From positions 1 to 58,033 of IMG/VR virus record IMGVR_UViG_3300032223_002716: DNA of 58,033 nt. One strand, given 5' to 3'. The position numbers and the translations under genes were made by a program. Of this stretch, positions 8,928-53,319 are shown one piece after another (position 1 is the first letter of the stretch; each line of letters begins with the position of its first letter). Source of the stretch: a virus (Duplodnaviria; Caudoviricetes). The notes under the pieces are model-generated. The model had not been told where the DNA came from and did no database searches. It saw only the letters and a program-made list of their open reading frames with translations.

Positions 8928-8983
8928 TAAATTTATTTTTACAAAAATAGTAAACTTTTAATAAATAAGCAACAGTAAGACAT

Positions 8984-10342: not shown

Positions 10343-10379
10343 ATTTTTATTTTTTACAAATCTAGGTATAATATTTTAA

Positions 10380-12077
10380 TTACGCAACAGTTTCTTGAAC
10401 TAATTTTGAATAATTATTTATTTTTTCTCTAATCTCAGTCAGAGTCGTAGTTTTAACTAAGTCACCATTTTTGTAAACAGTAGTTAATAAACCATTTTCC
10501 TCTAAATCACGAGAACATTTATCTTTAAGAGCATATGTTAAACTATCTTTAGCGTAAACATATAAGTAACCTCTTGCTGATTTTTTGGTACCATCATCAG
10601 TTACTGGGTCTTTGAAGATATCACGGTCAACACCATTAACAACTACGTGAGTAGCTTTAACTGCACCACCTTGGTTATCTCTTGTTGCATAACCCATAGA
10701 GTAAGAACCGATACCTAATACAACGTTAGTAGATGCGAAACCTTTTGCAGCTAATCTAGTACAAATAGCATCAGCTCTATCTAATGTGATTGAATCACCA
10801 TAGATTGCACCGATATGAGAATCTAATAATTTGTAACCTTGACCATTAGTTGTGCCACCAAATGTATTCCATAACAATTCGATTACACCAACATATTCTG
10901 GTTTACCTTCAACTTCTTCAGCATCGATATATAATTCATCAACATAATAATATTGTTTATCATAACGATTCCAAGTAGTGTCTTCAGTTAATTTGTAATA
11001 TGTACCATTAACATTAACAATACGAGTTGTATCGATAGTGTATTCATCTTCACCATGAACTGTAGACTCATATAATTCATTTTTGAAGTCATGCTTAGCT
11101 TGGTCTAATGAAGTATAATTTAAAGTAACCGAACCACATAAGATGTCAACTGGGTCACCAGAGTCTGGGCGTAATACTAATTTACCATCACGAGAAAGAA
11201 TTTCTTCTTTAAGTTCAGTAACGTATTCAGTACAAACTTTCCATAAGTCAAATGAATCAGATACTACTGATAAGATACCAGTTGGGTATTGTTGCATCAA
11301 TCTTCTGAAAGCACCAATCTCATCTTCTTTACCGTATGCAGTCATAACAGCATGTTCAGAAGCTGGAACACTGAAACCTACATTCTTAGTGTTGTAGTAA
11401 TAGTTTGCAGCTAATAATGCTGGGATTGTATCAGTACCAGAGAATGAAGTTAAGAACCCTAAACCAGAACTAATTGCTGACTCTGGGTGTTGCATTCCTC
11501 TGAATGAGAAATCATGTCCTTGGAAATCAACGAATCCTAAGTTTTCTTTATCAGTTTTTCTAGCATGTGATAATAAAATGTTTTTATAACCATAAGCTAA
11601 TGAAGCTGAGTGAACTGGCTTCCAAATCAAAGAAGAAATCAATGTTTCTAAGAAGTTAGGTAACCAAAAGAAATCTGGATGAGTATTCTTAATTGTGAAT
11701 ACTGGGATTTTCTCATCAACGATAGTTCCTTCGTCTAACGCTTTAATCTCAATAGGTAAATAACCTAAATTGTGTAATGCTTCGAAGTGAGATACATCAT
11801 AATCAGTCCCTAAATATGATGATAAGTATTCTTTAGCTTCACCACAAACTTCAGCTTTAGGTCTAGCAAAGAAATCATTAGCATACATGTCATGGATTGA
11901 CTTAACTGTAAATTGCACACCAGCAACTACAATTTTTTTAGCTTGTTTAGGCATATACTTCACATTTCTTAATGTGTAATTCGAATATACCTCAGTTGTA
12001 CCCTCTGGATACATCGCATGGTGACTAGTTTTATAACCATCTGTCATCAATAGCGGATTTTGTCTGTAACTATTCAT
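10380..12077 (-). CDS. nadV: Nicotinamide phosphoribosyltransferase family (Namat-like)
   Basis: TDGYKTSH, HDFSFRG, PASEHAVM, SVVSDSFD, RPDSGDP, IYGDSIT, KKSARG. Confidence 0.9.
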   Translation of the reverse strand: MNSYRQNPLLMTDGYKTSHHAMYPEGTTEVYSNYTLRNVKYMPKQAKKIVVAGVQFTVKSIHDMYANDFFARPKAEVCGEAKEYLSSYLGTDYDVSHFEALHNLGYLPIEIKALDEGTIVDEKIPVFTIKNTHPDFFWLPNFLETLISSLIWKPVHSASLAYGYKNILLSHARKTDKENLGFVDFQGHDFSFRGMQHPESAISSGLGFLTSFSGTDTIPALLAANYYYNTKNVGFSVPASEHAVMTAYGKEDEIGAFRRLMQQYPTGILSVVSDSFDLWKVCTEYVTELKEEILSRDGKLVLRPDSGDPVDILCGSVTLNYTSLDQAKHDFKNELYESTVHGEDEYTIDTTRIVNVNGTYYKLTEDTTWNRYDKQYYYVDELYIDAEEVEGKPEYVGVIELLWNTFGGTTNGQGYKLLDSHIGAIYGDSITLDRADAICTRLAAKGFASTNVVLGIGSYSMGYATRDNQGGAVKATHVVVNGVDRDIFKDPVTDDGTKKSARGYLYVYAKDSLTYALKDKCSRDLEENGLLTTVYKNGDLVKTTTLTEIREKINNYSKLVQETVA

Positions 12078-16179: not shown

Positions 16180-16383
16180 TTATTTTTCCATATCGGAGTG
16201 ATTCTCAATTAAGAATCTTTTGGCTTGAATAATTTGATGGTATAATACCCAATTAAAATTTCCGTCTCCGTTTTTAGTCCACCATACGACCATATCCATG
16301 TTATTAATTGAATTGTTAATCGGTGATGTTTGAATTTCTTCTGGTGTAATTGTTGTCATATTTTTATTATTTAAGTTAAACAT
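16180..16383 (-). CDS. Hypothetical protein
   Basis: ORF downstream of promoter at 16388-16395. Confidence 0.55.
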   Translation of the reverse strand: MFNLNNKNMTTITPEEIQTSPINNSINNMDMVVWWTKNGDGNFNWVLYHQIIQAKRFLIENHSDMEK

Positions 16384-16446
16384 AGTACAAATATATGTAT
16401 AATATAATCAATAAACAAATTTTTTAAAGATTAAATTAAAAAAAAG

Positions 16447-16520
16447 TGACCTCAGAAGGATTCTAACCTTCACTCTACGCATTAGAAGTGCGTTGCTTTA
16501 TACGATTAAGCTATGAGGCC
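16447..16520 (-). tRNA. tRNA-Arg(UCU)
   Basis: GGCCTCA/TGAGGTC acceptor; ACGCA-CTTCTAA-TGCGT; GAAGG-TTAGAAT-CCTTC (atypical T loop). Confidence 0.85.
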
Positions 16521-16526
16521 AAGTTT

Positions 16527-16734
16527 CCCCACCTTGAGATTACTGGTGAGTAGTTACATCGGTTTCTTCCTAATTCAAAAAACCTGCTGGGCATCCCCTA
16601 TGAAAAAAGTCAAACTACTTTGGTAACCGTGTTATAGGCCATTATTCCAAAGACTGCAACCTCAGTTGTATGCAGTTACACTAACCTATTGTTAAATAAG
16701 TCTTAGGTCAAAGACTACTGAGTACCCCTTACTC
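16527..16734 (-). ncRNA. Unidentified multi-hairpin RNA (~210 nt)
   Basis: GAGTA/TACTC, AGTCTT/AAGACT, ACTGCA/TGCAGT, CTTTGG/CCAAAG, GTAGTT/AACTAC, CTCACC/GGTGGG stems; GC-richer than the surrounding DNA; no ORF in the track. Confidence 0.6.
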
Positions 16735-16738
16735 ATTG

Positions 16739-16812
16739 CTCTACCCAAGGGACTCGAACCCCCAGCCCTTCGGCACCAGCCGATGTGCAAACCAATTTAC
16801 ACCATAAGCAGA
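16739..16812 (-). ncRNA. tRNA-like RNA with a 4-nt anticodon loop
   Basis: D arm GTGT..GCAC, TCGGC-TGGT-GCCGA, GGGGG-TTCGAGT-CCCTT, G-U-rich acceptor stem. Confidence 0.65.
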
Positions 16813-16909
16813 GAATCAAGAATTATCATCAGAAATTAGTGGTACCAAATCTCTTTAAGCTATATGATTGATATTCTTGTTAGGGTTGGGTTAATTACTC
16901 CCACCTTTG

Positions 16910-16982
16910 ATAACATGAGTAGATTCGAACTACTGACCCCTACATTAAAATAGTAGTGCTCTACCAACTGAGCTACATGTCA
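16910..16982 (-). tRNA. tRNA-Lys(UUU) with atypical anticodon arm
   Basis: TGACATG TA GCTCAGTTGGTAGAGC A CTACT-ATTTTAA-TGTAG GGGTC AGTAG-TTCGAAT-CTACT CATGTTA. Confidence 0.8.
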
Positions 16983-17006
16983 TTCCTTCTTCTTTGCAAA
17001 GAAGAA

Positions 17007-17167
17007 GATTAATGGTAATAGTCTTTATCAGGAATCTGGGGTTTGCTTTTTACACAAATGCTTCACACACCATTAGAGAGTTGGAAGTAATGCGACTTCT
17101 ATCCTTAGCTGTGTACCCTTGCGACACGTCTCTCCACGTCTGACTATTTACGCTTTTTCCATTAACC
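17007..17167 (-). ncRNA. Unidentified structured RNA (~160 nt)
   Basis: Closing helix TTAATGG..AATAGTC / GACTATT.CCATTAA; inner ACGT/ACGT and GAAGT/ACTTC hairpins. Confidence 0.55.
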
Positions 17168-17181
17168 AATAATAAATAAGT

Positions 17182-17482
17182 AACTTGATAAAGAAGGGAC
17201 ATAGCTAAAGTTAAAAATAAAACTAAAACCAAAGACCTCCCTCTACTCAAAGGCAAAATCAAAATCTAAGTCTTGTTTTGCTACCCAATTGTACCTATTA
17301 GGTTAACTTGTGTAGCCATTAGAGACAAGCTCAGTTTTTATAAATTTGTAGAAAGAGCGGATTATGGTAGACTCCTTTCGGAATCGGCTTTTATATTTTA
17401 ATTAGACCGCTTGTGGCAGTCAAATTAGTCATGTATATCAAACATATATAATATATAGAAGTTAATCCTACTCTATCAAGTT
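17182..17482 (-). ncRNA. Unidentified ~300-nt structured RNA with hexamer-periodic U-rich tracts
   Basis: Closing AACTTGATA/TATCAAGTT; GATTCC-GAAA-GGAGTC; CTCTTTCTAC/GTAGAGGGAG; NNYTTT repeats. Confidence 0.6.
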
Positions 17483-17527
17483 TAAATAATGGTGGTATCA
17501 ACTTGTGTTTAACCACCATTAACCTTA

Positions 17528-18442
17528 TTAATTCAATTGAGCTAAATAAGTATCAATCACATCTTGAAATCTTGAGTCAATATTGATTCTTAGTGAAGCA
17601 ATTTCACCAATTTCAGTTTGACGTTGTAACTCAAGGTCTTGACTCAACTTACTTAATTCAGCTTGGTATGCTGTGTATTCTTTATGGTATTGGTTGTTTA
17701 ACACTTCGTTAGTTGCGTTAACTTTAGCAAAACCATCTGAATTATGTCTAGCGATACGAGCATTCTCAGCAGTAGTTAAATCCTTAACCTTAGCTTTGAA
17801 GTAATTCACTCGCTGTTCATACTGACGGTGTTTTGCAGCCAATTCATTATGAATAGTTAGCAATTGTTCATTAGTATGATGAACTGTTACCGTTAAAGGT
17901 GTTTTCTTACCTTGCTCAACTTCAATCCACTCTAAAGTTTTGATTGATGGTAATTCTTTTCTAAGATTATCCAATGGACCATTCTTATGAATGAATTGAC
18001 CGATGTGAGCAGCATAAGCTTCAGCTTCAGTGTACTCATTGATTTCGTTTGAAGTCAATTGAGACCAACCAAAATCTTCACCAACCTCATCGATTGGTTC
18101 GAAATGTTCCAATTTAGGTCTAGCTGGAGCAACTACGTCAACGTCAATACCTCTGTAACGAGCTTCTCTGATTAAAATATCTTTTGCTTTGATATTTTCC
18201 ATCAAGAACGCTTGAGTTGCATGCAACTTAGCTTTCTCCAAAAGCAATTCAGTTAAATTACTAGGTACTGGTTTACCAACAGTCTCAATATAAGTTTGCT
18301 CACCTATTTTAAGTTGTTTCTCAACGTTGTTGATACCATTTAACTCAGCAGCAATATCAGTTGCTCTTTGATTACACAAATTTGAAATTGATTGTGCTTG
18401 TGACAAGGATAAACCTTTAGTCGATAACGAATGTTTCTTCAT
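17528..18442 (-). CDS. Long coiled-coil/helical protein of unknown function
   Basis: 304 aa, helical heptad pattern, own TAGATTTG promoter at 18476-18483. Confidence 0.85.
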   Translation of the reverse strand: MKKHSLSTKGLSLSQAQSISNLCNQRATDIAAELNGINNVEKQLKIGEQTYIETVGKPVPSNLTELLLEKAKLHATQAFLMENIKAKDILIREARYRGIDVDVVAPARPKLEHFEPIDEVGEDFGWSQLTSNEINEYTEAEAYAAHIGQFIHKNGPLDNLRKELPSIKTLEWIEVEQGKKTPLTVTVHHTNEQLLTIHNELAAKHRQYEQRVNYFKAKVKDLTTAENARIARHNSDGFAKVNATNEVLNNQYHKEYTAYQAELSKLSQDLELQRQTEIGEIASLRINIDSRFQDVIDTYLAQLN

Positions 18443-18470: not shown

Positions 18471-18658
18471 TTTTACAAATCTAGTTATTATATTTTAATT
18501 ATGCAACTTTTTTTAAACATTTTTTTCAGATTCTTCTAATTCTTTTAACATTTTAATAAAATCATCAGACTCAATGAATAAATTATGTTCCTCTTCCAAA
18601 TATTCTTCTCTCATTGTTTTACAAATTTAGTTATTATATTTTAATTGTGCAACTATTT
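18471..18658 (-). repeat. ~40-bp direct repeat of a promoter cassette (18471-18510, 18617-18656; third copy 10352-10387)
   Basis: TTTTACAAATyTAGTTATTATATTTTAATTrTGCAAC. Confidence 0.8.
18513..18614 (-). CDS. 33-aa acidic peptide between the duplicated promoters
   Basis: MREEYLEEEHNLFIESDDFIKMLKELEESEKNV. Confidence 0.45.
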   Translation of the reverse strand: MREEYLEEEHNLFIESDDFIKMLKELEESEKNV

Positions 18659-24889: not shown

Positions 24890-24944
24890 ATTTTATATTA
24901 TTTTTACAAATATAGTCACTTTATAGATAAAACGCAACAGTTAG

Positions 24945-33345: not shown

Positions 33346-33737
33346 ATGAGAAAATAAATAAAGCTGCTAGATGTTATATCGCAGTATGGGATGGTCAAGT
33401 GATTGGATTCAATGCAACATTATCAATGCCTAGTGGTTATATTAAAAATGCATGGAGAGGCCATAGAACAGTCATATTACCCGAGTTCCAAGGTTTAGGG
33501 TTGGGAGTTGCAATGTCAAATTTAATTGCTCAAATGTATATTGATGATGGTTGTAGGTATTACTCTAGAACAGCTCACCCAAGACTTGGTGCCTATAGAG
33601 ATAATTCTGATTTATGGAAACCAACTAGTAAAAATAAAAAATTACGTAATGATGTTAAACATGAAAATGTTTATAAACATCATTATGTTGATAATAAAAG
33701 AGTTTGTTTTTCACATGAATATATCGGTTTAAAGTAA
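33267..33737 (+). CDS. GNAT acetyltransferase domain (-1 frame continuation)
   Basis: VRPEIKIEL..W.MFKEHHYL..RTVILPEFQGLGLG. Confidence 0.8.
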   Translation, partial: VRPEIKIELYRTNYGGWDMFKEHHYLDEKINKAARCYIAVWDGQVIGFNATLSMPSGYIKNAWRGHRTVILPEFQGLGLGVAMSNLIAQMYIDDGCRYYSRTAHPRLGAYRDNSDLWKPTSKNKKLRNDVKHENVYKHHYVDNKRVCFSHEYIGLK

Positions 33738-34601
33738 ATTATTTAATTTCTCAATAATAATTTCATCATACTTTATTATTAACAAATTAATTCGGTTATC
33801 AGTACAATATTTTCTTTTTATTTTATCATTAGTAATTGTTTTATTAAATCCTATGTCTCCACCAAAGACCTTGACTGGTAAGTAATGTTGTCTACCATTA
33901 AACTCAATACATAGATTGTAATCTGGTAAATAAAAGTCAAATGGTAGTGGTAAAATATTTCTACATTCTGTAAATCTATGTTGTGGGATAAAATTAATTT
34001 TATTTTTAATTAGATATTCACGTATTTTTTTCTCACCTTTTGATTCACGACACTTAGGACACCCACTACCATTTAAATGTGAATTCGGTGTCTGCATGAA
34101 TTCACCGTGTTCTGAACATATTATTTTAACTTTAGTACTATTATTAACATAGTTAACTAATGAATAATCATACTTATAGTTATGGACTAAATTTGCTTGT
34201 TCAATAAACTGATTAATCGTTTTTTTAGGTGTTCCAGAACATAAAAAACATTCTTTACCTGATAAATGAGCGTTTGGTGTTTGCATGAATTCACCGTGTT
34301 CTGGACATATTATTTTAACTTTAGTTGTTGAATTGGTAAATATAACATTTGAATAATCGTACTTGTCACCATGTATTTTTCTTGATTTTTTGATAAATAA
34401 TGGGTAATCAATTTTATGGCCACTACATTTTGGGCAAGTTTGTTTTCGATTAATATGTTTTCTGGGTTCTTGTTCAAACACACCATGTTCATGACATATT
34501 ATTTTAACTTTAGTTTCATTATTAATATAATTAACTAATGAATAATCATACTTATAGTTATGAGCTAAATTAGCTCGGTCAATAAAATTATTAGTTTTCA
34601 T
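33729..34601 (-). mobile_element. Free-standing homing-endonuclease-like gene (Zn-repeat DNA-binding domains + C-terminal PD-(D/E)XK/Vsr-like nuclease)
   Basis: 3x KYDYS..Y....KVKIIC.EHG.F.Q.P..H...C..C; PFDFYLP..CIEFNGRQHY. Confidence 0.8.
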
Positions 34602-34639
34602 CTTGCTATTTATTAATAAATATCTCAAAAAAGTTAAAA

Positions 34640-35634: not shown

Positions 35635-38145
35635 TTAAGATAAAATAATTTTATCTTCTTTTTTATCGTATGTGATTTTAATAGTATCTCCTTCTTTAAA
35701 GTTACCATTAAGGATTTCATCAGTTACTGGGTCTTCAATGTATCTTTGAATTGCTCTAGTAAGTGGTCTAGCACCATATGCTTCATCATAACCTTGTTTA
35801 GCAACATAATCAACCGCTGATTTATTAATCTTGATATCAAAACCAATCTCTTTAACTCTAGCTTTTAATTTATCTAATTCGTTATGAATAATCACACTAA
35901 TATCTTCTGGTTTAAGACTGTTGAAGATAATAGTTTCATCAATACGGTTAAGGAACTCTGGTTTGAATTTCTTCTTTAATGCTTTCTCAATAATTGAACG
36001 AGCTTTCTCTTGTTCATTTACAATTGCAGCATCAGTTTCAAATCCAATATTCTTACCAAAACTTGTTAACTCTCTAACACCTACGTTTGAAGTCATAATG
36101 ATGATTGTATTCTTAAAGTTAACTTTACGACCTAAACCATCAGTTAAATGTCCTTCATCTAATACTTGAAGTAATAGGTTAAATACATCGTCATGACCTT
36201 TCTCAATCTCATCTAATAAGATAATTGAATATGGTTTTCTTCTAACTTTCTCAGTTAATTGTCCACCTTCTTCATAACCAACATATCCTGGTGGTGGACC
36301 AATCAATCTAGACACAGAATGTTTCTCCATGAACTCAGACATATCCACTCTAATCAATGCATCCTTATCACCATATACATATTCAGCTAATACTTTAGAT
36401 AAGTGAGTTTTACCAACACCAGTAGGTCCTAAGAATATAAATGATGATGGTTTGTTTTTATCTTTGATACCTAAACGACTACGTTTGATAGCTTTGGATA
36501 CTTTAACGATTGCATCATCTTGACCAATTACTTTACCAAGCAATTCTTTATCCATATTCATTAATCGTTTATTCTCTTGAGTTGAAATCTTATTTACTGG
36601 AATACCAGTCATCATAGATACAACGTCAGAAATTAAATCAACATCAACAATAGTTCTTTTCTCATCAAGATTTTTAACCCATTCTTCTTTAGCCTTAGCT
36701 AAATCAGTATCGATTTTTCTTTCCTCATCTCTTAACTTAGCGGCTTCTTCATATTTTTGTTTTGAAACAACATCCATTTTCTTAGTTTGAATATCAGCTT
36801 TCTTAGCTTCCAATGTTTTTATTTTTTCTGGAATCTCAACTTCAATATTTGTACTAGCGCCAGCTTCATCTAAAACATCGATAGCTTTATCTGGCATAGC
36901 TCTATCAGTGATATATCTATCAGATAATTTAACACACTCCTCAATAGCTTCATCAGTATAAGTAACCTTATGGTGATTTTCATATTTACCTCTAATACTT
37001 TTAAGCATAGTAATAGTTTCCTCTAAACTTGGTTCTTCAACCAATACTTGTTGGAACCGTCTAGTCAATGCACCATCTTTTTCTACGTTCTCTCTAAATT
37101 CGTCAAGTGTTGTAGCACCAATGATTTGTATTTCACCCCTAGCCAATGCTGGTTTGAAAATATTAGATGCATCTAAAGAGCCTGAGGAGTTTCCAGCACC
37201 AACAATGGTATGTAACTCATCAATGAACAAGATAACGTCTTTATTCGCTTTTAATTCATCTAATATTGCTTTCATACGTTCTTCGAATTGACCACGGTAT
37301 TTTGTACCAGCAACAATTGATGCTAAGTCTAAAGAATAGATTCTTTTTTCTAATAACATTCTAGGTGCTTTACCATCAACAATTAATTGAGCTAAACCTT
37401 CAATGATAGCTGTTTTACCAACTCCAGGTTCACCAATCAATACTGGGTTATTCTTTTTTCTTCTTGATAAGATTTGAGATACACGTTTAATCTCTTTCTC
37501 TCTACCAATAATAGGGTCAACATTACCCTCTTCTACAGCTTTAGTAACATCAGCACAGAAATTATCTAATACTGGTGTTTTACTTGCTTTACCACGTTTA
37601 ACTGTTGTTTTCTTTGATTTATCACCAAATTCTTCACCAAAAACGTTTTCATCGTCATCCCCTAACATATTCTTTGGGATATCCTTTTCATTTAGTTTAC
37701 CTTTCATATTAATTATAACTTTTTTAAAATTTTCGTAATTAATCCCAAAGCTAGTCAATATTTGAACAATACGCAACTTTTTATTGGTTAGAATTGATAA
37801 AGTGACATGTTCTAAATCTATATGGTTATCATTCAATAACTCTGATTCATTATCCACTTTATTCATTACCGCTTTCATTTCATCGCTGAATGGTAATCTA
37901 ATTCTTTTACTACCAGTAACACTAGGAGTTAAATTTATTTCTCTGATGTGCTCACTTAATTTATCGTGTAATACATTCACATCCGCACCTAATTTTTTAA
38001 ATGCGTTAACACAGATATTACTATCATCCAATAATATTGCAATCAAAATATGCTCAGGTCTAACAAGGACATCCTCATTACTTTTGGCTTCATTCATCGC
38101 ATTATTTATAATAAGTTTAACCTTAGGTACTATTTCTCTATTCAT
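35635..38145 (-). CDS. clpC: ClpC-type Clp protease ATP-binding subunit
   Basis: Clp N domain, GEPGVGKT, UVR motif YEEAAKLRD, GPTGVGKT, GARPL. Confidence 0.95.
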   Translation of the reverse strand: MNREIVPKVKLIINNAMNEAKSNEDVLVRPEHILIAILLDDSNICVNAFKKLGADVNVLHDKLSEHIREINLTPSVTGSKRIRLPFSDEMKAVMNKVDNESELLNDNHIDLEHVTLSILTNKKLRIVQILTSFGINYENFKKVIINMKGKLNEKDIPKNMLGDDDENVFGEEFGDKSKKTTVKRGKASKTPVLDNFCADVTKAVEEGNVDPIIGREKEIKRVSQILSRRKKNNPVLIGEPGVGKTAIIEGLAQLIVDGKAPRMLLEKRIYSLDLASIVAGTKYRGQFEERMKAILDELKANKDVILFIDELHTIVGAGNSSGSLDASNIFKPALARGEIQIIGATTLDEFRENVEKDGALTRRFQQVLVEEPSLEETITMLKSIRGKYENHHKVTYTDEAIEECVKLSDRYITDRAMPDKAIDVLDEAGASTNIEVEIPEKIKTLEAKKADIQTKKMDVVSKQKYEEAAKLRDEERKIDTDLAKAKEEWVKNLDEKRTIVDVDLISDVVSMMTGIPVNKISTQENKRLMNMDKELLGKVIGQDDAIVKVSKAIKRSRLGIKDKNKPSSFIFLGPTGVGKTHLSKVLAEYVYGDKDALIRVDMSEFMEKHSVSRLIGPPPGYVGYEEGGQLTEKVRRKPYSIILLDEIEKGHDDVFNLLLQVLDEGHLTDGLGRKVNFKNTIIIMTSNVGVRELTSFGKNIGFETDAAIVNEQEKARSIIEKALKKKFKPEFLNRIDETIIFNSLKPEDISVIIHNELDKLKARVKEIGFDIKINKSAVDYVAKQGYDEAYGARPLTRAIQRYIEDPVTDEILNGNFKEGDTIKITYDKKEDKIILS

Positions 38146-38245
38146 AAGACATTTTTATTTTTACAAAATTAGTTATAATTACAAAAAAAATCAATAGTTG
38201 CTTTTAATTATAAATAGTACTATCTTTGTTGTAAAATTTTTAAAT

Positions 38246-39526: not shown

Positions 39527-41299
39527 ATGTTCAACCTAAAGAGAAGTTCAGTAGTTAGTTTTATATTTGCAATTATATTTATGGTGATATTTTTAACCAT
39601 AAAATTGTGCGTATTAACTGGTTACATACCACCATGTGATTTAACTAGATGGATAGAATTTATCTGTTTCTTATTTTTCATACCTTTGTTTGGTGTTATG
39701 GTTAAAGATTACCTAACTAAGAATAAAGAATCTGTTAAATTAAATTATTATGCCAGAAATTTAAACGAAACATTAATTTCTCAAACACATAATCCATTAT
39801 TTTACGAAGGGGACATCACTGAAGGGGCTAAATTATTAACTAAAGAAGTTGTTAATAGTTTAAATATCGATAGATGTTCAATATGGTTGTATAACCATGA
39901 TAAAACTTCAATTATTTGTGAACAATTATATCTTAAGAAAGAGGATGTGTGGGTTCAAGATATTGAGATATTTGAGAAGGATTATAAGGAATATTTTGAC
40001 GCTATTAAAGTAGACCCTACAATTATTGCTGATGATGTATTTACACATCCAGCTACAGCATGTTTTACTGAAACATATGCAAAACCTTTAGGGATTAATT
40101 CTATGCTTGATGTACCAATTGTATATAGAGGTGAAGTTATTGGAGTTATTTGTAATGAAAGTTTTAACACCAAAGTTTGGCATAAGGTTGAAGTTAATTT
40201 TGCTGAGATGTTATCGTCATTATACGCATTCGCTTATTCAGTATGGGAGAATAAATTAACTGAAAATAAATTTAGTGATTTTGAATTATTCGTTGATGAA
40301 ACAGCATTAGTTACTAAAGCAGATAAAAATGGTAAAATTACATACGCTAATCAAAAATTTTTAGATATATGTGGTTGGTCGTTAGACGAAGTTATAGGTG
40401 CTGACCATAATATAGTTAATTCAAATACACACCCTAAAAAGTTTTGGAATAACATGTATAGAACAACAGTTAAGAAAAGAAAAATCTGGCATGAGATTGT
40501 AACTAATAAAAATAAAAAGGGTGAATTATATTATGTAGATACATACATTAAAGCTGAATTTGACCAAGAAACTGATGAATTAGTCGGATTTTTATCTATC
40601 AGACAAGATGTAACTGAATTATATGAATCGCTTAATGAAGTTAGTGAAAAGAATACGTATTTAGAGCACGCTGCGAAGATTCTAAGACACGATATGCATT
40701 CTGGAATAAATACATATATCCCAAGAGGAGTTAGTTCGTTAGAACGAAGATTAAAGCCAGAAGATATTGAACGTTTAAAATTAGAAGCACCTTTAAAAAT
40801 GCTTAAAGAAGGTCTTAAGCATACTCAGAAAGTTTACAAAGGTGTATATGAATTTACAAATCTAGTTAAAAAAGATACTGTAATAACTAAAGAACCATTA
40901 AAACTTAAAAAAATATTAGATAATTATTTAAAATCAACAGCTTATTCAAGTCAAGTTGCTATCGATGTATTACCAGAACTTGAAGTAAATGAATCTTTAT
41001 TCTGTACAGCGGTTGATAACTTAATTAGAAACGGATTAAAATATAATGATTCTGAACATAAATTGGTGGCTATATTTATGGAAGACGAGAATCACATTGC
41101 GATACAAGATAACGGTAGAGGTATGACTCAAGAGGAATTTAATAAATTATCTCAACCATACACTCGAAAAGCAAACCAGAAGGAGAGTGGTTCTGGATTG
41201 GGGTTAAACATATGTATAGCGATACTTAAAGAGCATGGGTTCAAAATTTCTTGTGAGAAAAACGAGGTTGGAACCAAACTATTAATAACAATTAAATAA
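39527..41299 (+). CDS. Sensor histidine kinase (2 TM-GAF-PAS-HK)
   Basis: GAF (SMLDVPI), PAS (ITYANQKF), H-box LRHDM, N-box NLIRNGLKY, DNGRG, GSGLGL. Confidence 0.9.
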   Translation: MFNLKRSSVVSFIFAIIFMVIFLTIKLCVLTGYIPPCDLTRWIEFICFLFFIPLFGVMVKDYLTKNKESVKLNYYARNLNETLISQTHNPLFYEGDITEGAKLLTKEVVNSLNIDRCSIWLYNHDKTSIICEQLYLKKEDVWVQDIEIFEKDYKEYFDAIKVDPTIIADDVFTHPATACFTETYAKPLGINSMLDVPIVYRGEVIGVICNESFNTKVWHKVEVNFAEMLSSLYAFAYSVWENKLTENKFSDFELFVDETALVTKADKNGKITYANQKFLDICGWSLDEVIGADHNIVNSNTHPKKFWNNMYRTTVKKRKIWHEIVTNKNKKGELYYVDTYIKAEFDQETDELVGFLSIRQDVTELYESLNEVSEKNTYLEHAAKILRHDMHSGINTYIPRGVSSLERRLKPEDIERLKLEAPLKMLKEGLKHTQKVYKGVYEFTNLVKKDTVITKEPLKLKKILDNYLKSTAYSSQVAIDVLPELEVNESLFCTAVDNLIRNGLKYNDSEHKLVAIFMEDENHIAIQDNGRGMTQEEFNKLSQPYTRKANQKESGSGLGLNICIAILKEHGFKISCEKNEVGTKLLITIK

Positions 41300-49274: not shown

Positions 49275-51008
49275 ATGCTAACAGCAGTAGAAATATTTGA
49301 AGAATATGCTAAATGTCTGAATAATCCAATTTATGCAATTGAGACTTATTTACAGACATTTGATAAAACTCAAGAAGGTTTTGTTCCATTTAAACTTTTT
49401 GTTAGACAGAAAGAAATTGTTAGAGCATATGAGAAACATAGATTTAATTTAGTCACCAAACCACGACAAGCTGGTATATCAACAACCACGCAAGCTTATT
49501 GTGGCATAAAGATTGGATTTGCCGACCCTAATAACCCTGAGACAATAATTGTTATTGCCAATAAGTTAACATTGGCTAAGAAGTTCTTAAAAGGGATAAA
49601 AGACTATGTTAGTCAATTACCTAGATGGGTATGGGGTGGTGAATATTATGGTGATAAAGAAAAAGAGAAGAAAAGTATCTTTGTGAAAGATTCTCAGATT
49701 GAGGTTGAATTACCAAATGGTTCTAAGATTATTGCGGTAGCAACATCTGAGGATGCATTAAGGGGATATACACCAACATTCCTAATCTTTGATGAGGCAG
49801 CCTTTATCGATAGAGGTGCTGATTTATATGCAGCAGCTGTAACATCGTTAGGTACTGGGGGTAGAGCAATATTAATCTCAACACCAAATGGTTATGACCC
49901 ATTATATTATAAAACTTATGAACAAGCTAAGAGGGGTGAGAATACATATAATATTATAGAATTAAAATGGTATGAAGACCCTAGGTACAATAAAGACTTA
50001 AGTTGGACCAAAAATGAAGAAACTGTTAAGGAATATGAATTTAGTATAGAATCCTACGCTAAGAAAATAAAAGATGGTTGGAAACCAGCATCTTCTTGGT
50101 ATATAAACATGTGTAAGAACATGAACAACGATAAGAAGAAGATTGCACAAGAGTTAGATGTATCATTCTTAGGTTCTGGGGGTAACGTAATAGATGATGA
50201 ATTTATTGACTTCCATGAGAAGAATAATGTAACTGAACCTAAGTATGTTGATAAAACATATTTTGATGGTAATAGTGGTTTAATATGGATTTGGTCTGAA
50301 CCTATCGAAGGTCATGAGTATATAATGGCAGCTGACGTTGCTAGAGGTGATGGTGCCGATTATTCATGTTTTCAGATTATAGATTTTACCACAATGGAAC
50401 AAGTTGTTGAATTTCAAGGTAAAATACCGCCAGATAACTTTGCTGAAGTATTAAACATATATGGTTTAAAATATGATGCATTTTTAATTGTTGATAATAT
50501 TGGTGTTGGTAATACTACAACTAGTAAATTGGTTGAGTTGAAATATCCAGATTTATATTACGAAGAAAAAACTAAAGATAATAAAGTAGCTGGATTTAAT
50601 ATTAACGGATGTAGATTACAATTAATCTCTAATTTGGAGATAGCAATTAGAACAAATACCATTAAGATAAATTCAATACGATTAATCCATGAGATGAAGA
50701 CATTCATTTATAAAAATGGTAGACCAGACCATATGGAAGGTTATCATGATGATTGTTTAATGAGTCTTGGTATGGCTTTATGGATATTGGAATCATCATT
50801 TAAAAGTTTAAAGAAAGCAAAAGAACAAACTAAGGCTATTTTAGCTGGATGGACTGTAGGTGGTAGTGATAGTTATAATTCAACTATAACAACTACTGAC
50901 CCAGTAACTAATAAGAAGGTAACTAAAATTAATCCAAATCATTCTGCGTATAGAAATGTACAAGACCCTAATGGAGATTATATGTGGTTATTTTCAGGAA
51001 TGAGATAA
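49275..51008 (+). CDS. terL: Terminase large subunit (T4 gp17-like)
   Basis: KPRQAGIST, LIFDEAAF, ISTPNG, ADVARGDGADYS, HDDCLMS. Confidence 0.95.
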   Translation: MLTAVEIFEEYAKCLNNPIYAIETYLQTFDKTQEGFVPFKLFVRQKEIVRAYEKHRFNLVTKPRQAGISTTTQAYCGIKIGFADPNNPETIIVIANKLTLAKKFLKGIKDYVSQLPRWVWGGEYYGDKEKEKKSIFVKDSQIEVELPNGSKIIAVATSEDALRGYTPTFLIFDEAAFIDRGADLYAAAVTSLGTGGRAILISTPNGYDPLYYKTYEQAKRGENTYNIIELKWYEDPRYNKDLSWTKNEETVKEYEFSIESYAKKIKDGWKPASSWYINMCKNMNNDKKKIAQELDVSFLGSGGNVIDDEFIDFHEKNNVTEPKYVDKTYFDGNSGLIWIWSEPIEGHEYIMAADVARGDGADYSCFQIIDFTTMEQVVEFQGKIPPDNFAEVLNIYGLKYDAFLIVDNIGVGNTTTSKLVELKYPDLYYEEKTKDNKVAGFNINGCRLQLISNLEIAIRTNTIKINSIRLIHEMKTFIYKNGRPDHMEGYHDDCLMSLGMALWILESSFKSLKKAKEQTKAILAGWTVGGSDSYNSTITTTDPVTNKKVTKINPNHSAYRNVQDPNGDYMWLFSGMR

Positions 51009-51306: not shown

Positions 51307-53319
51307 ATGGCAGATAATAAAAAAACCGTATTCCAGAGACTTAATACTATATTTGATGCAACTGGTGTTGATTTAACTAAAGTAAATCAAACCGTTAACA
51401 AATATTCTATTGGTAATGATGTGTTACTTAAAACACAATCTAAAGAGGAATATGAAGCAGCTAAATTACAAGCACAACAAGCTAAATTCTTAGGTAGTGT
51501 TTGGAGAAAAACTGAGAATGAATTAATTCAACACTCCATGCATTATGAAACAACTCGTATTGGTTCATATGCTGATTTTGAATCCATGGAATTTTATCCA
51601 GAAATTGCTGCGGCATTGGATATTATGATGGAAGAATCTACTACTGTAAACAGTAAAGGTAGAGTATTGAATGTTTATTCCGATAGTAAACGTATTCAAG
51701 GTATATTAGAAGATTTATTCTTCAATAGACTTGATTTACATGCAAGTTTACCAATGTGGACTAGAAACGTATGTAAGTATGGTGATAACTTCATATTATT
51801 AAACATTGACGATAAAAAAGGTATCGTTGGTGCTAGACAGTTACCTAACTTCGAGATTGAAAGAAGAGAAGGTGATATTGTTCAAAATCAATATAGTGGA
51901 GAATGGACAGTTAATAACGAAGGTGAGGATGCTAAAGTTAAATTCTTTTGGAGAGGTCGTGATATGGAATTTAATTCATGGCAAATTGCTCACTTTAGAT
52001 TATTAGGTGATGATAGACGTTTACCATATGGTACATCGGTATTAGAAAAAGCTAGACGTATTTGGAAACAATTACAGTTATCAGAAGATGCGATGTTAGT
52101 ATATCGTGTAACTAGAGCACCAGAAAGACGTGTATATAAAATATATGTTGGTAATATCGATGAACAAGATGTACCACAATACGTTGATGATATTGCTAAT
52201 AGGTTTAAAAGAAAACCAGTTATTGACCCACAAACTGGTCAAATCGATTTAAGATATAACCAATTAGCAAATGACCAAGATTATTTTATTCCAGTAAGGG
52301 ATGAGAATGCTGCAACTCCAATCGATACATTACAAGGTGCATCTAACTTGGACCAGATTGCTGATATTCAATACTTACAAAGAAAATTGTTTACTGCACT
52401 TAGAGTTCCAAAAACTTTCTTAGGTTTTGAGGAAGCAACTGGTGATGGTAAAAACTTGGCTATGCAAGATGTTCGTTTCTCTAGAACAATTAATAGAATA
52501 CAACAAGCGATTATTGCTGAATTAAATAAAATAGCAATTATCCATTTATATATGTTAGGTTTTGAGGATGAGATTTCTAATTTTAACCTATCATTGAATA
52601 ACCCATCTACTCAAGCTAAGATGTTGGAAATTGAGCAATTACAAGCTAAAATGACATTGTATAAAGATGCAGTATCAGAAGCTGGTAACGGATTCATGGG
52701 TATGTCTATGACTAGAGCTAGAAGAGATATTTTAGGTTGGACTGATGAAGAAATTAAGAAAGATTTCTTAGAACAAAGATTAGAGAAAGCAGCAGCTGCT
52801 GAAATAGAGAATACATCGGCAGTAATTAAACATACTGGTATGTTTGATGAAGTTGATGGTGTATACGGTGATATTAACGCTGCGATTGCTGGTGCTGGTG
52901 AAGGTGGTGAAGATGCTGGTGGAGCTATCGGTGGTGGTGGCGGTGGTTCATTCGGTGGCGGTGGATTTGGTAGTGCAACTGAAACACCAGAAGCTGGTGA
53001 AGAGGCTACCCCAGAGGCTGGTGAAGAAGCTACTCCAGAGGCTGGAACAGAAACACCTGAAGCTGGAGCAGAGGCGGCACCTGAAGAAACATTAGCTGAA
53101 CAAATTAAGAAAACTAACCAATTATTGACTGAGAATACTAAGCAGTTAAATCAAAGAAAAAATAAATACAGTAAAATGTATGTGAACCGATTAATTGATA
53201 ATATAGAACATAAAGAAACTATTATTAATGAGAGAGTTGCAATCTATGATAAAACGCTTAAAATCAATGAAGATATAAACGGAATGATTAACGATATAGA
53301 TAATATGTTAAAGGATTAA
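51307..53319 (+). CDS. Portal protein (T4 gp20-like)
   Basis: EDAMLVYRVTRAPERRVYKIYVGN, DYFIP, YLQRKLFTALRVP. Confidence 0.95.
   Translation: MADNKKTVFQRLNTIFDATGVDLTKVNQTVNKYSIGNDVLLKTQSKEEYEAAKLQAQQAKFLGSVWRKTENELIQHSMHYETTRIGSYADFESMEFYPEIAAALDIMMEESTTVNSKGRVLNVYSDSKRIQGILEDLFFNRLDLHASLPMWTRNVCKYGDNFILLNIDDKKGIVGARQLPNFEIERREGDIVQNQYSGEWTVNNEGEDAKVKFFWRGRDMEFNSWQIAHFRLLGDDRRLPYGTSVLEKARRIWKQLQLSEDAMLVYRVTRAPERRVYKIYVGNIDEQDVPQYVDDIANRFKRKPVIDPQTGQIDLRYNQLANDQDYFIPVRDENAATPIDTLQGASNLDQIADIQYLQRKLFTALRVPKTFLGFEEATGDGKNLAMQDVRFSRTINRIQQAIIAELNKIAIIHLYMLGFEDEISNFNLSLNNPSTQAKMLEIEQLQAKMTLYKDAVSEAGNGFMGMSMTRARRDILGWTDEEIKKDFLEQRLEKAAAAEIENTSAVIKHTGMFDEVDGVYGDINAAIAGAGEGGEDAGGAIGGGGGGSFGGGGFGSATETPEAGEEATPEAGEEATPEAGTETPEAGAEAAPEETLAEQIKKTNQLLTENTKQLNQRKNKYSKMYVNRLIDNIEHKETIINERVAIYDKTLKINEDINGMINDIDNMLKD

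Follow-up and report, generated by a model that had tools for sequence, protein, structure and literature searches.

Large, intricately folded RNAs are rare in bacteria and their phages, and ribozymes, riboswitches, OLE, the ROOL and GOLLD cages and the VIPR guides have each opened new biology. In the trp leader, TRAP recognizes (G/U)AG repeats separated by 2-3 spacer bases, with one triplet bound by each subunit of the oligomer. The partner RNAs of TnpB start at the 3' end of the protein gene and belong to the same transcript, and type III toxin-antitoxin systems (ToxIN-like) possess tandem RNA repeats of ~34-36 nucleotides (nt) upstream of an endoribonuclease toxin gene. Here, we describe a module on the minus strand of the uncultivated virus record IMGVR_UViG_3300032223_002716 (Duplodnaviria; Caudoviricetes), all 58,033 nt of which were analysed (hereafter the window). 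In this module the gene of a 304-amino-acid (aa) protein is followed by a structured RNA of ~350 nt bearing two tracts of hexamers that end in UUG. The best explanation of our observations is a widespread new module of T4-like giant phages, consisting of the gene for a dimeric 304-aa protein and the ~350-nt RNA as its 3' untranslated region (UTR).

A precedent for a phage protein that oligomerizes on an RNA with fixed-triplet repeats is VIPR, which was described in 2026 and is the nearest published concept. In the available text of the reports, a phage RAMP protein forms a filament on an RNA of GGY/NN pentamers (bioRxiv 10.64898/2026.04.26.720920; 10.64898/2026.10.21.760802), and its protomers oligomerize along the repeats (bioRxiv 10.64898/2026.04.26.720920; 10.64898/2026.04.26.720927). 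Like VIPR, the module described here combines a phage protein gene with an adjacent noncoding RNA, in which short fixed-trinucleotide repeats are joined to a conserved structured part. The two differ, however, in period (6, not 5) and in triplet (UUG, not the GGY of YNNGG repeats). They also differ in arrangement, with 3 + 5 units split by a helix rather than 9-16 in one run, in the biased rather than hypervariable bases, and in the presence of one ~350-nt RNA per locus instead of several of ~100 nt. The Vipr protein is a RAMP with an RRM core, G-loop and thumb, whereas the model of the 304-aa protein is composed of long helices and two β-hairpins. No RAMP or Cas7 chain was present among the Foldseek or VIA-align rows, a missing fold match that is compatible with membership of that protein family. 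By the features of its RNA, the module is not a VIPR.

Other described systems share single features with the locus. As in the TRAP target, a conserved triplet is repeated with short spacers; unlike that target, the triplet here is UUG, the spacers number exactly 3, the arrays reside on a large folded 3' UTR RNA and not in a terminator-switching 5' leader, and no TRAP-like protein is evident. The RNA begins at the 3' end of a protein gene, as does TnpB RNA, but it has no transposon context, no guide segment and an unrelated protein. Compared with ToxIN-like systems by their generally known features, the repeats measure 6 nt, are situated downstream of the gene and form part of a fold. The repeating heptamer equals the GTCTTTG/T consensus of CspB sites, including the C at position 3, as that consensus is given in the available text (PMC1904285, PMC7825780). 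Finally, ROOL and GOLLD are large, ornate phage RNAs that, in the available text of PMC12286853, often lie beside tRNA islands, and the RNA described here likewise often lies beside such an island. It matches neither of them in sequence or structure, however, is smaller, has an obligatory protein neighbour and carries periodic, probably single-stranded tracts.

An earlier reading of the window by a model that was given only the letters and their open reading frames (the original prediction) had been unable to assign the RNA to any family, and comparison with Rfam bears this out. Rfam 15, with families such as ROOL, GOLLD, tmRNA, 6S and the group I/II introns, finds at gathering thresholds only 2 tRNAs in the whole window, and at E≤10 over 16300-17700 nothing within 16983-17527 exceeds 25.7 bits, against thresholds of 35.6-50 bits. 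The available text of a catalogue of phage structured RNAs describes more than 10,000 candidates, of only 29-151 nt (PMC10690425). No prior description of the RNA was found in the literature, the supplements of PMC10690425 and the cluster database of 10.64898/2026.10.21.760802 lying outside the search, and unnamed fragments of the RNA may be among the entries of that catalogue or database. We conclude that this is a new RNA class with a new protein partner.

A structured RNA behind the 304-aa gene

The RNA extends on the minus strand from ~17527 to ~17175, that is, from the stop codon of the 304-aa open reading frame (ORF) onward, and we regard it as virtually certain that this structured RNA is genuine and new. 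The elements named in the original prediction, namely the ORF, TAGATTTG, a hairpin, a long-range helix, a GAAA hairpin, a nested arm and two hexamer tracts, all lie where it had placed them. The parts of the module, in window positions, are these:

18471-18507, minus strand: promoter-like motif GTTGCAnAATTAAAATATAATAACTAnATTTGTAAAA, which includes TAGATTTG, before the 304-aa gene
17528-18442, minus strand: gene of the 304-aa protein, an orphan family
17487-17522, minus strand: hairpin A, a 10-bp stem with an apical 3-bp mini-hairpin and an ACAA loop, 5 nt past the stop codon
17467-17482, minus strand: 5' strand of the long-range helix, AACTTGATA (17474-17482), with the extension GAGTAGG (17467-17473)
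17386-17466, minus strand: linker, A/U-rich and variable, containing a local hairpin (17405-17421) as read from the sequence; its conservation among the 61 aligned sequences is poor
17370-17385, minus strand: P0, a GAAA-loop hairpin immediately 5' of the core, as read from the sequence
17180-17360, minus strand: core as matched by the covariance model R1, comprising P1, P2, P3, P4 (a variable hairpin), tracts 1 and 2, the CUAU box and the tail
17348-17357 with 17237-17246, minus strand: P1
17325-17334 with 17266-17276, minus strand: P2
17312-17316 with 17280-17284, minus strand: P3
17249-17266, minus strand: tract 1, 3 hexamers between the 3' strands of P2 and P1
17207-17236, minus strand: tract 2, 5 hexamers after the 3' strand of P1
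17199-17206, minus strand: CUAU box, near-invariant, closing tract 2 (columns 293-296: 62, 62, 61 and 61 of 62 letters)
17182-17198, minus strand: 3' strand of the long-range helix, TATCAAGTT (17182-17190), with the extension CCCTTCTT (17191-17198)
17174-17181, minus strand: candidate 3' end of the transcript, from contig ends

From 5' to 3', the RNA comprises hairpin A, the 5' strand of the long-range helix, the A/U-rich linker and P0, then the P1 arm and tract 2 with its CUAU box, and last the long-range helix's 3' strand. Enclosed by P1 are an A-rich strand, helices P2 and P3, the variable hairpin P4, and tract 1. At the place of P0, most of the listed loci have a tetraloop hairpin rich in G+C, as judged by eye and without a count.

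Homologues of the 304-aa protein number 2570 at E≤0.001 among 4082 candidates, with 447 cluster representatives at the same threshold. There are 155 confirmed viral loci, the best 80 of which were analysed; distant relatives of the protein (P0254, P0235 and P0186) yielded no confirmed further locus when used as queries. By blastn, DNA similar to the intergenic stretch is present right behind the gene in 55 of the 80 loci, where protein identity is just 50-60%. An alignment of 34 representatives, in which P1, P2 and P3 were placed by hand from compensatory changes and RNAalifold, gave R1, a covariance model of the core with 184 positions and 26 pairs. R1 has one match in the window (17180-17360, 152.5 bits, E 4.8e-27), the RNA being single-copy in the record, and it matches 78 of the 80 protein-selected viral loci, once per locus, downstream of the gene and on the same strand. 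In the two negative loci (L022 and L065) the sequence stops 124 and 223 nt past the gene. R1 also matches three of five contigs from metagenome-assembled genomes (MAGs), and the remaining two end too early.

Pairing was evaluated in an R1 alignment of 63 distinct sequences, which is fitted to the model and so favours the structure, and in a second alignment, made with MAFFT, that spans the whole region in 61 loci; the same helices were already visible in independent MAFFT alignments. In the R1 alignment, 93.5% of core pairs are standard, versus 79.0% in shuffles and 34-53% with slid partners. Changes on both sides occur in 21 of the 26 pairs (242 cells), and none of 500 shuffles reaches the observed value on any of five measures. 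Hairpin A with its apical mini-hairpin, taken together with the long-range helix, is 86.7% paired in the 61 sequences (shuffles 61.9%, slid controls 32-48%), a result that 0 of 500 shuffles attain on four of five measures. All ten stem pairs and all three apical pairs of hairpin A have changed on both sides, with 80% and 83% of cells paired, respectively. The nine pairs of the long-range helix are 96.1% paired and show compensatory changes in 9/9. This helix probably extends for 6-8 more pairs between a block after its 5' strand and a block after the CUAU box; with the extension, its 17 pairs are 83.2% paired (0/500 shuffles), the inner pairs only 40-90%. G-U pairs are common on the minus strand (one pair of P2 is GU in 45 rows, and one of P1 is UG in 22), which argues for an RNA rather than a structure in double-stranded DNA. 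The covariation is unusually clear, and with it the secondary structure is essentially solved. Thus, the matches to R1 and the covariation substantiate the proposal, made in the original prediction, of a structured RNA of ~300-350 nt behind the ORF that is closed by a long-range helix.

Two additional structural readings were rejected. A pseudoknot between P4 and the 3' tail is unsupported, as the longest complementarity averages 6.46 nt versus 6.02 nt with shuffled tails, and the segment CGCUCUUUCUACAA, which resembles boxA by the consensus known to us, is the covarying 5' strand of P1.

The hexamer unit has the consensus A-Y-U-U-U-G and is present 3 + 5 times. In tract 1 the register columns, at a spacing of 6, contain G in 61, 57, 63 and 62 of 63 sequences, each preceded by UU in 60-63 of the 63, and columns 225-247 are gap-free. 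In tract 2, six columns at this spacing contain G in 63, 60, 55, 48, 51 and 43 of 63 sequences, with almost all the rest A, and columns 260-298 are gap-free except for one truncated row and one insert column. The strict register noted in the original prediction is conserved, with no indels in the 63 distinct sequences; a template role for the tracts, also suggested there, gained no support. The periodicity exceeds chance. Within the 58 kb, a five-unit pattern (TTTRNN...) is found only at 17200-17233, as 2 overlapping matches with at most one mismatch (0.01 expected; 0/100 shuffles reach 2). The three-unit pattern TTTGNNTTTGNNTTTG is found only at 17248-17263 (0.05 expected; 4/100 shuffles reach 1). 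In a minimal variant of the RNA (L085; R1 85 bits) a short hairpin replaces P2-P4, with P1, both tracts, the CUAU box and the tail retained. Because they tolerate no indels, have a near-invariant UUG and are retained in this variant, the tracts are the least dispensable, constrained part of the RNA. They are likely to be single-stranded. Pairing of tract 1 with the facing A-rich strand was considered and found to be unselected (-2.49 versus -2.55 kcal/mol in shuffles; better in 24 of 62).

The bases outside the triplet evolve at a different rate. Among 14 pairs of sequences at least 95% alike, substitution amounts to 6.5% at the N positions of the hexamers, 2.9% in the rest of the RNA and 1.8% in UUG, and among 23 pairs that are 90-95% alike the corresponding values are 16.1%, 7.6% and 4.7%. 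Composition at the N positions is biased (A / Y / U) and their difference saturates at 39%, which falls short of hypervariability.

Gene and RNA are linked in both directions. Of all ORF families near the RNA, the 304-aa family is present in 81/81 loci and the next in 32/81. Conversely, a search from the RNA with a 26-nt tract pattern yielded 78 viral stretches. In 63 of them the protein is encoded upstream and on the same strand, most often 221-297 nt ahead of the pattern, and a further 6 have less than 700 nt of upstream room. The nine stretches without the protein are regarded as chance matches because the R1 core is absent from 7 and reaches only 22.9 bits in 2, and because they appear by eye to be antisense to lysine/alanine-rich coding sequence. 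None of the 78 stretches contained a true copy of the RNA in the absence of the gene. The original prediction had coupled the RNA to the upstream gene, and this coupling holds in the 78 of 80 loci, in the 81/81 family presence and in the reverse search.

A distant copy is found in bajarodcaudo virus 1, a phage from rodent faeces, whose protein is 23.6% identical. It is the only match in a set of 50,697 phage records, and no cultured member is known. The R1 score 117 nt past its gene is 27.6 bits (E about 1e-4), and by eye hexamers with a UUG period, a P1 (CUGCUAUUCC / GGAAUAGUAG) and a long-range helix of 12 bp can be made out in this reduced copy. Overlapping the copy is the annotated coding sequence of a hypothetical protein of 58 aa (XHH63432.1; PQ006092.1, locus L082, 3412-3588), which is probably spurious, a mis-annotation. 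The distance between gene and RNA can vary, the core starting ~890 and ~730 nt past the gene end in loci L045 and L049 versus the usual 130-150 nt. Two observations concern the junction itself: the sequence that directly precedes hairpin A in L019, L025, L027, L045 and L049 is unlike the usual gene end, and in 8 loci a family of ~93-aa ORFs begins at the end of the 304-aa gene.

The 304-aa protein and the transcript

The 304-aa protein matches no Pfam family at E≤0.1 and no PHROGs family, its NCBIfam matches are limited to two below threshold (15.1 and 12.3 bits), and no family is common to more than one of 89 members. The likeness to DUF6847/DIP1984 or PspA raised in the original prediction was not encountered in the Pfam and NCBIfam searches of the protein and the 89 members. 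PDB sequence and profile searches gave nothing credible, and the ESM Atlas no usable match. An AlphaFold2 model built from 89 sequences (pLDDT 93.7, pTM 0.88) contains two units of helix, β-hairpin and long helix, followed by a long helical hairpin and a C-terminal helix. Thus, in place of the coiled-coil protein envisaged at first, the model has a compact fold of helices and two β-hairpins with no long coiled coil. Foldseek returned 0 matches at E≤0.001 in the PDB and only the protein's own family in BFVD, and the best Z in a wide VIA-align search, 6.8, is within the noise range for helical models.

Modelling supports a symmetric homodimer of the protein. The homodimer prediction scored 0.42 versus 0.04 for the best control, with three runs agreeing in 100% of contacts and a partner pLDDT of at least 86; in a benchmark of the dimer score this mark was reached by 20/30 same-chain pairs and 1/23 single chains, counts that are rough owing to the use of our own alignment. 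Residues G148, H152, R161, H205, E209, N213, K216 and K87 are invariant or near-invariant and would suit a binding or catalytic site.

Assembled contigs from four riverine metatranscriptome runs cover the RNA; they derive from relatives that are ~95% alike, are silent on strand, ends and level, and come from libraries that may contain DNA. One contig of 704 nt (X17, 17174-17884) joins the RNA to 350 nt of the gene, and another of 550 nt (X16, 17211-17768) joins it to 240 nt, in both cases within the 3' half of the gene. In two studies, contigs (X15, 17174-17507, and X17) terminate at 17174, where neither has a loose end. Together these contigs give a weak hint that the RNA is co-transcribed with the gene and has its 3' end at ~17174. 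Positions 17033-17154 are without contig cover in most runs. A separate Bacteroidota-type promoter for the RNA was rejected, as TAnnTTTG occurs in only 4 of 64 upstream regions and the one occurrence in the window (17439-17446) lies inside the RNA.

The tRNA island and the phage

The tRNAs called by ARAGORN in the window are located at 16446-16520 and 16909-16982 only, and the RNA itself is called neither as a tRNA nor as a tmRNA. The tRNA-Lys gene lies ~190 nt downstream of the RNA and is followed on the same strand by a weak tRNA-like match and tRNA-Arg. Of 60 scanned loci, 41 contain tRNA genes and 30 contain 5-22 of them, all listed on the strand of the gene. The array ends 37 nt before the gene in L046, L048 and L053 and just before it in many loci. 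Since 19 of the 60 loci have no tRNA within ~4 kb, the constant partner of the RNA is the gene and not the tRNAs.

Several side observations were made in these arrays. A second conserved noncoding element of ~130 nt (17024-17156, minus strand) lies between the RNA and tRNA-Lys; copies of it are located between tRNA-Arg(acg) and tRNA-Arg(tct) in L015, L023, L027, L037 and L051. RNAalifold predicts 34 pairs from 7 copies, 7 of the pairs with compensatory changes, and Rfam offers no match for the element, which may be a small stable RNA that is processed with the tRNAs. The weak tRNA-like match (16740-16811, minus strand; 26.4 bits versus a gathering threshold of 29), which is uncalled by ARAGORN, may be a degenerate or unusual tRNA. 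Suppressor-type tRNAs with the anticodon tta are called by ARAGORN just upstream of the gene in L006 (3849-3926) and L031 (3677-3754), where they may reflect stop-codon reassignment or suppression in these phages. In L074, ARAGORN reports a permuted tmRNA (1040-1571) that overlaps tRNA genes of the array and is possibly a false call.

The window is a fragment of a large T4-like phage, with a CheckV completeness of 22% for the 58-kb record. It encodes a lysozyme as well as the following structural and packaging genes:

49275-51008: T4-type large terminase
51307-53319: T4-type portal

Other genes of the window encode a nicotinamide phosphoribosyltransferase (10380-12077, minus strand), a full ClpB-like two-ring AAA+ chaperone (35635-38145, minus strand) and a GAF-PAS sensor histidine kinase (39527-41299, plus strand). 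An ORF at 33729-34628 (minus strand) contains 3 direct repeats of 142 nt at a spacing of 189 nt (34067-34586) and would thus encode an internally repeated protein.

Upstream of the 304-aa gene lies a 37-nt promoter-like motif, GTTGCAnAATTAAAATATAATAACTAnATTTGTAAAA, of repeat family D5, which has 3 copies in the window (at 10352, 18471 and 18617) versus 0.00 expected. It contains TAGATTTG at 18476-18483 (minus strand). Its TTG...TAnnTTTG arrangement resembles what we take to be the promoter consensus of Bacteroidota; TAnnTTTG alone is not enriched in the window (113 found versus 100 expected). Two families of such promoter-like repeats, which end in TAnnTTTGTAAAA and have TTGC upstream, are represented at 10352-10388, 18471-18507 and 18617-18653 (minus strand), with further members at 8933-8979, 24898-24944 and 38155-38201. 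These families suggest a common class of early promoter and presumably hint at a host among the Bacteroidota. The host labels of the five MAG contigs with homologues are inconsistent, and no host is assigned. Metagenomes with near-identical DNA are from freshwater, wastewater, aquaculture and lake samples.

A proposed periodic docking surface and its alternatives

We tentatively favour, at somewhat less than even probability, an RNA-protein module in which the hexamer arrays form a periodic docking surface and the module's own dimeric protein is the likeliest reader. This reading draws on the two-way gene linkage, unbroken down to 24% protein identity, and on the 3'-end-encoded layout, which is typical of dedicated partner RNAs. 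It also draws on the fixed number of units, the indel-free register and the arrays being held between helices, and we count the VIPR precedent in its favour. The RNA would constitute a closed scaffold, its ends joined by the long-range helix, with hairpin A, P0 and the P1-P2-P3-P4 arm inside. This scaffold would expose two single-stranded hexamer arrays, each anchored by helices at both ends: array 1, with 3 units, between P2 and P1, and array 2, with 5 units and the CUAU box, between P1 and the long-range helix. The arrays would serve as a docking platform that a protein reads unit by unit, and the module's own protein could form with the RNA a complex active during infection, which its position may link to the phage tRNA and translation island. 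We infer that the tracts are unpaired in the cell, that they are read by a protein, that this reader is the 304-aa protein and, with these, any biological role of the module.

Several observations weigh against this reading. When the core is folded without constraints, the tracts have a mean pairing probability of ~0.5, through weak pairs of the A-U and G-U types. With a pI of 5.9 for the window protein and, among 89 members, a median pI of 6.3 and a median net charge of -3, the family is mildly acidic, which is unusual for a coat on a U-rich RNA, and family and profile searches revealed no recognisable RNA-binding domain. What is predicted is a symmetric, closed dimer and not a filament in which each hexamer has its own subunit. 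The limits of the metatranscriptome contigs given above apply here too. In addition, the linkage of gene and RNA would arise equally from cis regulation of the gene, and G-U-C-U-U-U-G is a cold-shock preference of host type, which fits a host reader at least as well. The original prediction had one repeat bound by each subunit of an oligomer, and the symmetric dimer and the acidic protein speak against that. Taken as a whole, it is partly supported: it holds with respect to the structured RNA, the register, the novelty and the coupling to the gene, but gained no support as to per-subunit binding, the coiled coil, the family likeness and the template.

The strongest rival, which we consider unlikely though a serious contender, is that the RNA is a decoy or recruiter for host cold-shock-domain (CSD) or other OB-fold proteins, soaking up or concentrating Csp chaperones, while the 304-aa protein acts in the same pathway without binding the tracts. 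To our knowledge, no natural RNA presents adjoining Csp sites in tandem on a scaffold. Each of 8-9 adjoining units offers G-(U/A)-C-U-U-U-G, with the consensus G-U-C-U-U-U-G when the preceding G is included. The best-conserved unit, columns 261-267, has G 63, T 62, C 52, T 58, T 61, T 63 and G 60 of 63, and C at heptamer position 3 is also dominant in units 2, 3, 4 and 8 (50, 63, 52 and 40 of 63). This heptamer equals, in sequence likeness only, the preference 5'-GTCTTTG/T-3' of Bacillus subtilis CspB, which in the available text has a strong C at position 3 and T at 2, 4 and 6 (PMC1904285). Cold-shock domains are described as having six base-binding subsites and as binding RNA such as GUCUUUA (PMC7825780), and a pitch of six bases suits their side-by-side binding. 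Bacteroidota own such proteins, the CSD family being detected in a control genome of B. thetaiotaomicron, whose cold-shock protein is BT1884 in the available text of PMC13370968. The match, however, is to the protein of one Gram-positive species and was measured on DNA, and the available text of PMC7825780 describes cold-shock domains as weakly sequence-selective. A loose binder needs no fixed number of units, indel-free register or elaborate scaffold, and the unbroken linkage to the 304-aa gene would be unexplained. Moreover, among the proteins of the window, which is ~22% of the genome, there is no CSD or RRM gene, and the host is unassigned. A different host protein, the Bacteroides RRM-1 protein RbpB, was rejected as a reader, as its motif in the available text of bioRxiv 10.1101/2021.04.27.441718, GUAGGAUA, is unlike the tracts; a search by motif terms in the available text of PMC11697453 found no binding motif for it.

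A cis-acting 3' UTR element that stabilizes, terminates or feeds back on the 304-aa mRNA would account for an RNA that starts 5 nt past the stop codon, is colinear with the gene in RNA-library contigs, shows no separate promoter signal and ends at 17174 in contigs of two studies. We nonetheless consider it distinctly unlikely, as 350 nt with at least 6 covarying helices and 48 nt of register-locked single strand exceed the known needs of a stabilizer or terminator. Furthermore, the RNA is untied from the stop codon in loci such as L045 and L049, with cores ~890 and ~730 nt past the gene, and at the altered junctions.

An RNA-only role, in which a tRNA-island RNA, perhaps multimeric, shares just its promoter with the gene, has a similarly low probability in our estimate. 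ROOL and GOLLD provide the example, being often near tRNA islands and without a known protein partner in the available text of PMC12286853. The tRNA genes in 41 of 60 loci (5-22 of them in 30) and the tRNA-Lys ~190 nt downstream in the window agree with such a role, but in the 19 loci without a tRNA within ~4 kb the protein gene is always present, and Rfam gives no match to ROOL or GOLLD even at E≤10.

Two further proposals assign a code to the bases between the triplets. In one, which we rate as improbable, dimers of the 304-aa protein clamp the UUG of each unit, and the other three bases form a gapped code for a fixed nucleic-acid target, plausibly a host or rival-phage tRNA, an mRNA leader or a DNA site. 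If true, this would be a second, independently evolved periodic-repeat RNA-protein machine, analogous to VIPR but with an unrelated fold and a far larger RNA. The other, a noncontiguous reader of the VIPR kind in which the protein locks UUG and exposes three bases for pairing with a gapped DNA or RNA target, seems to us very doubtful. It would be in keeping with a layout in which a fixed triplet and looser bases recur at a short, constant interval ahead of a conserved structured part, beside a phage gene, and with N positions that change ~2x faster than the rest of the RNA among close relatives. These positions, however, are biased and saturate at 39% instead of being hypervariable; there is one RNA per locus, the period is 6 and not 5, and by secondary structure the model has no RRM-like core. 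As an idea only, the unit (Y-U-UUG-A) might also mimic an anticodon loop and act as a decoy for anticodon nucleases.

A non-RNA explanation, by a DNA-level element (origin or packaging site) or a small coding gene, has next to no probability: origins can carry short-period T-rich repeats and a 70-aa ORF (17050-17262) overlaps, but the compensatory changes include many G-U pairs on one strand only, a period of 6 bp does not keep step with the turns of the DNA helix, stops interrupt all three forward frames of the tracts, P1 has one-base indels (columns 250 and 255), and the ORF, whose conservation the original prediction had named as the finding that would count against it, enters sequence that is absent even from the closest loci, whose similarity ends at ~17168.

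With 2570 protein homologues and several metagenome types, the module is abundant. Its eight UUG-ended hexamers are an obvious and mutable candidate for a functional surface, and the single dedicated protein, with a fold unseen in the PDB, makes pull-down, electrophoretic mobility shift and cryo-EM experiments straightforward. Finally, the position that the RNA often takes at the edge of a tRNA array may help to explain why large RNAs gather in phage tRNA islands.

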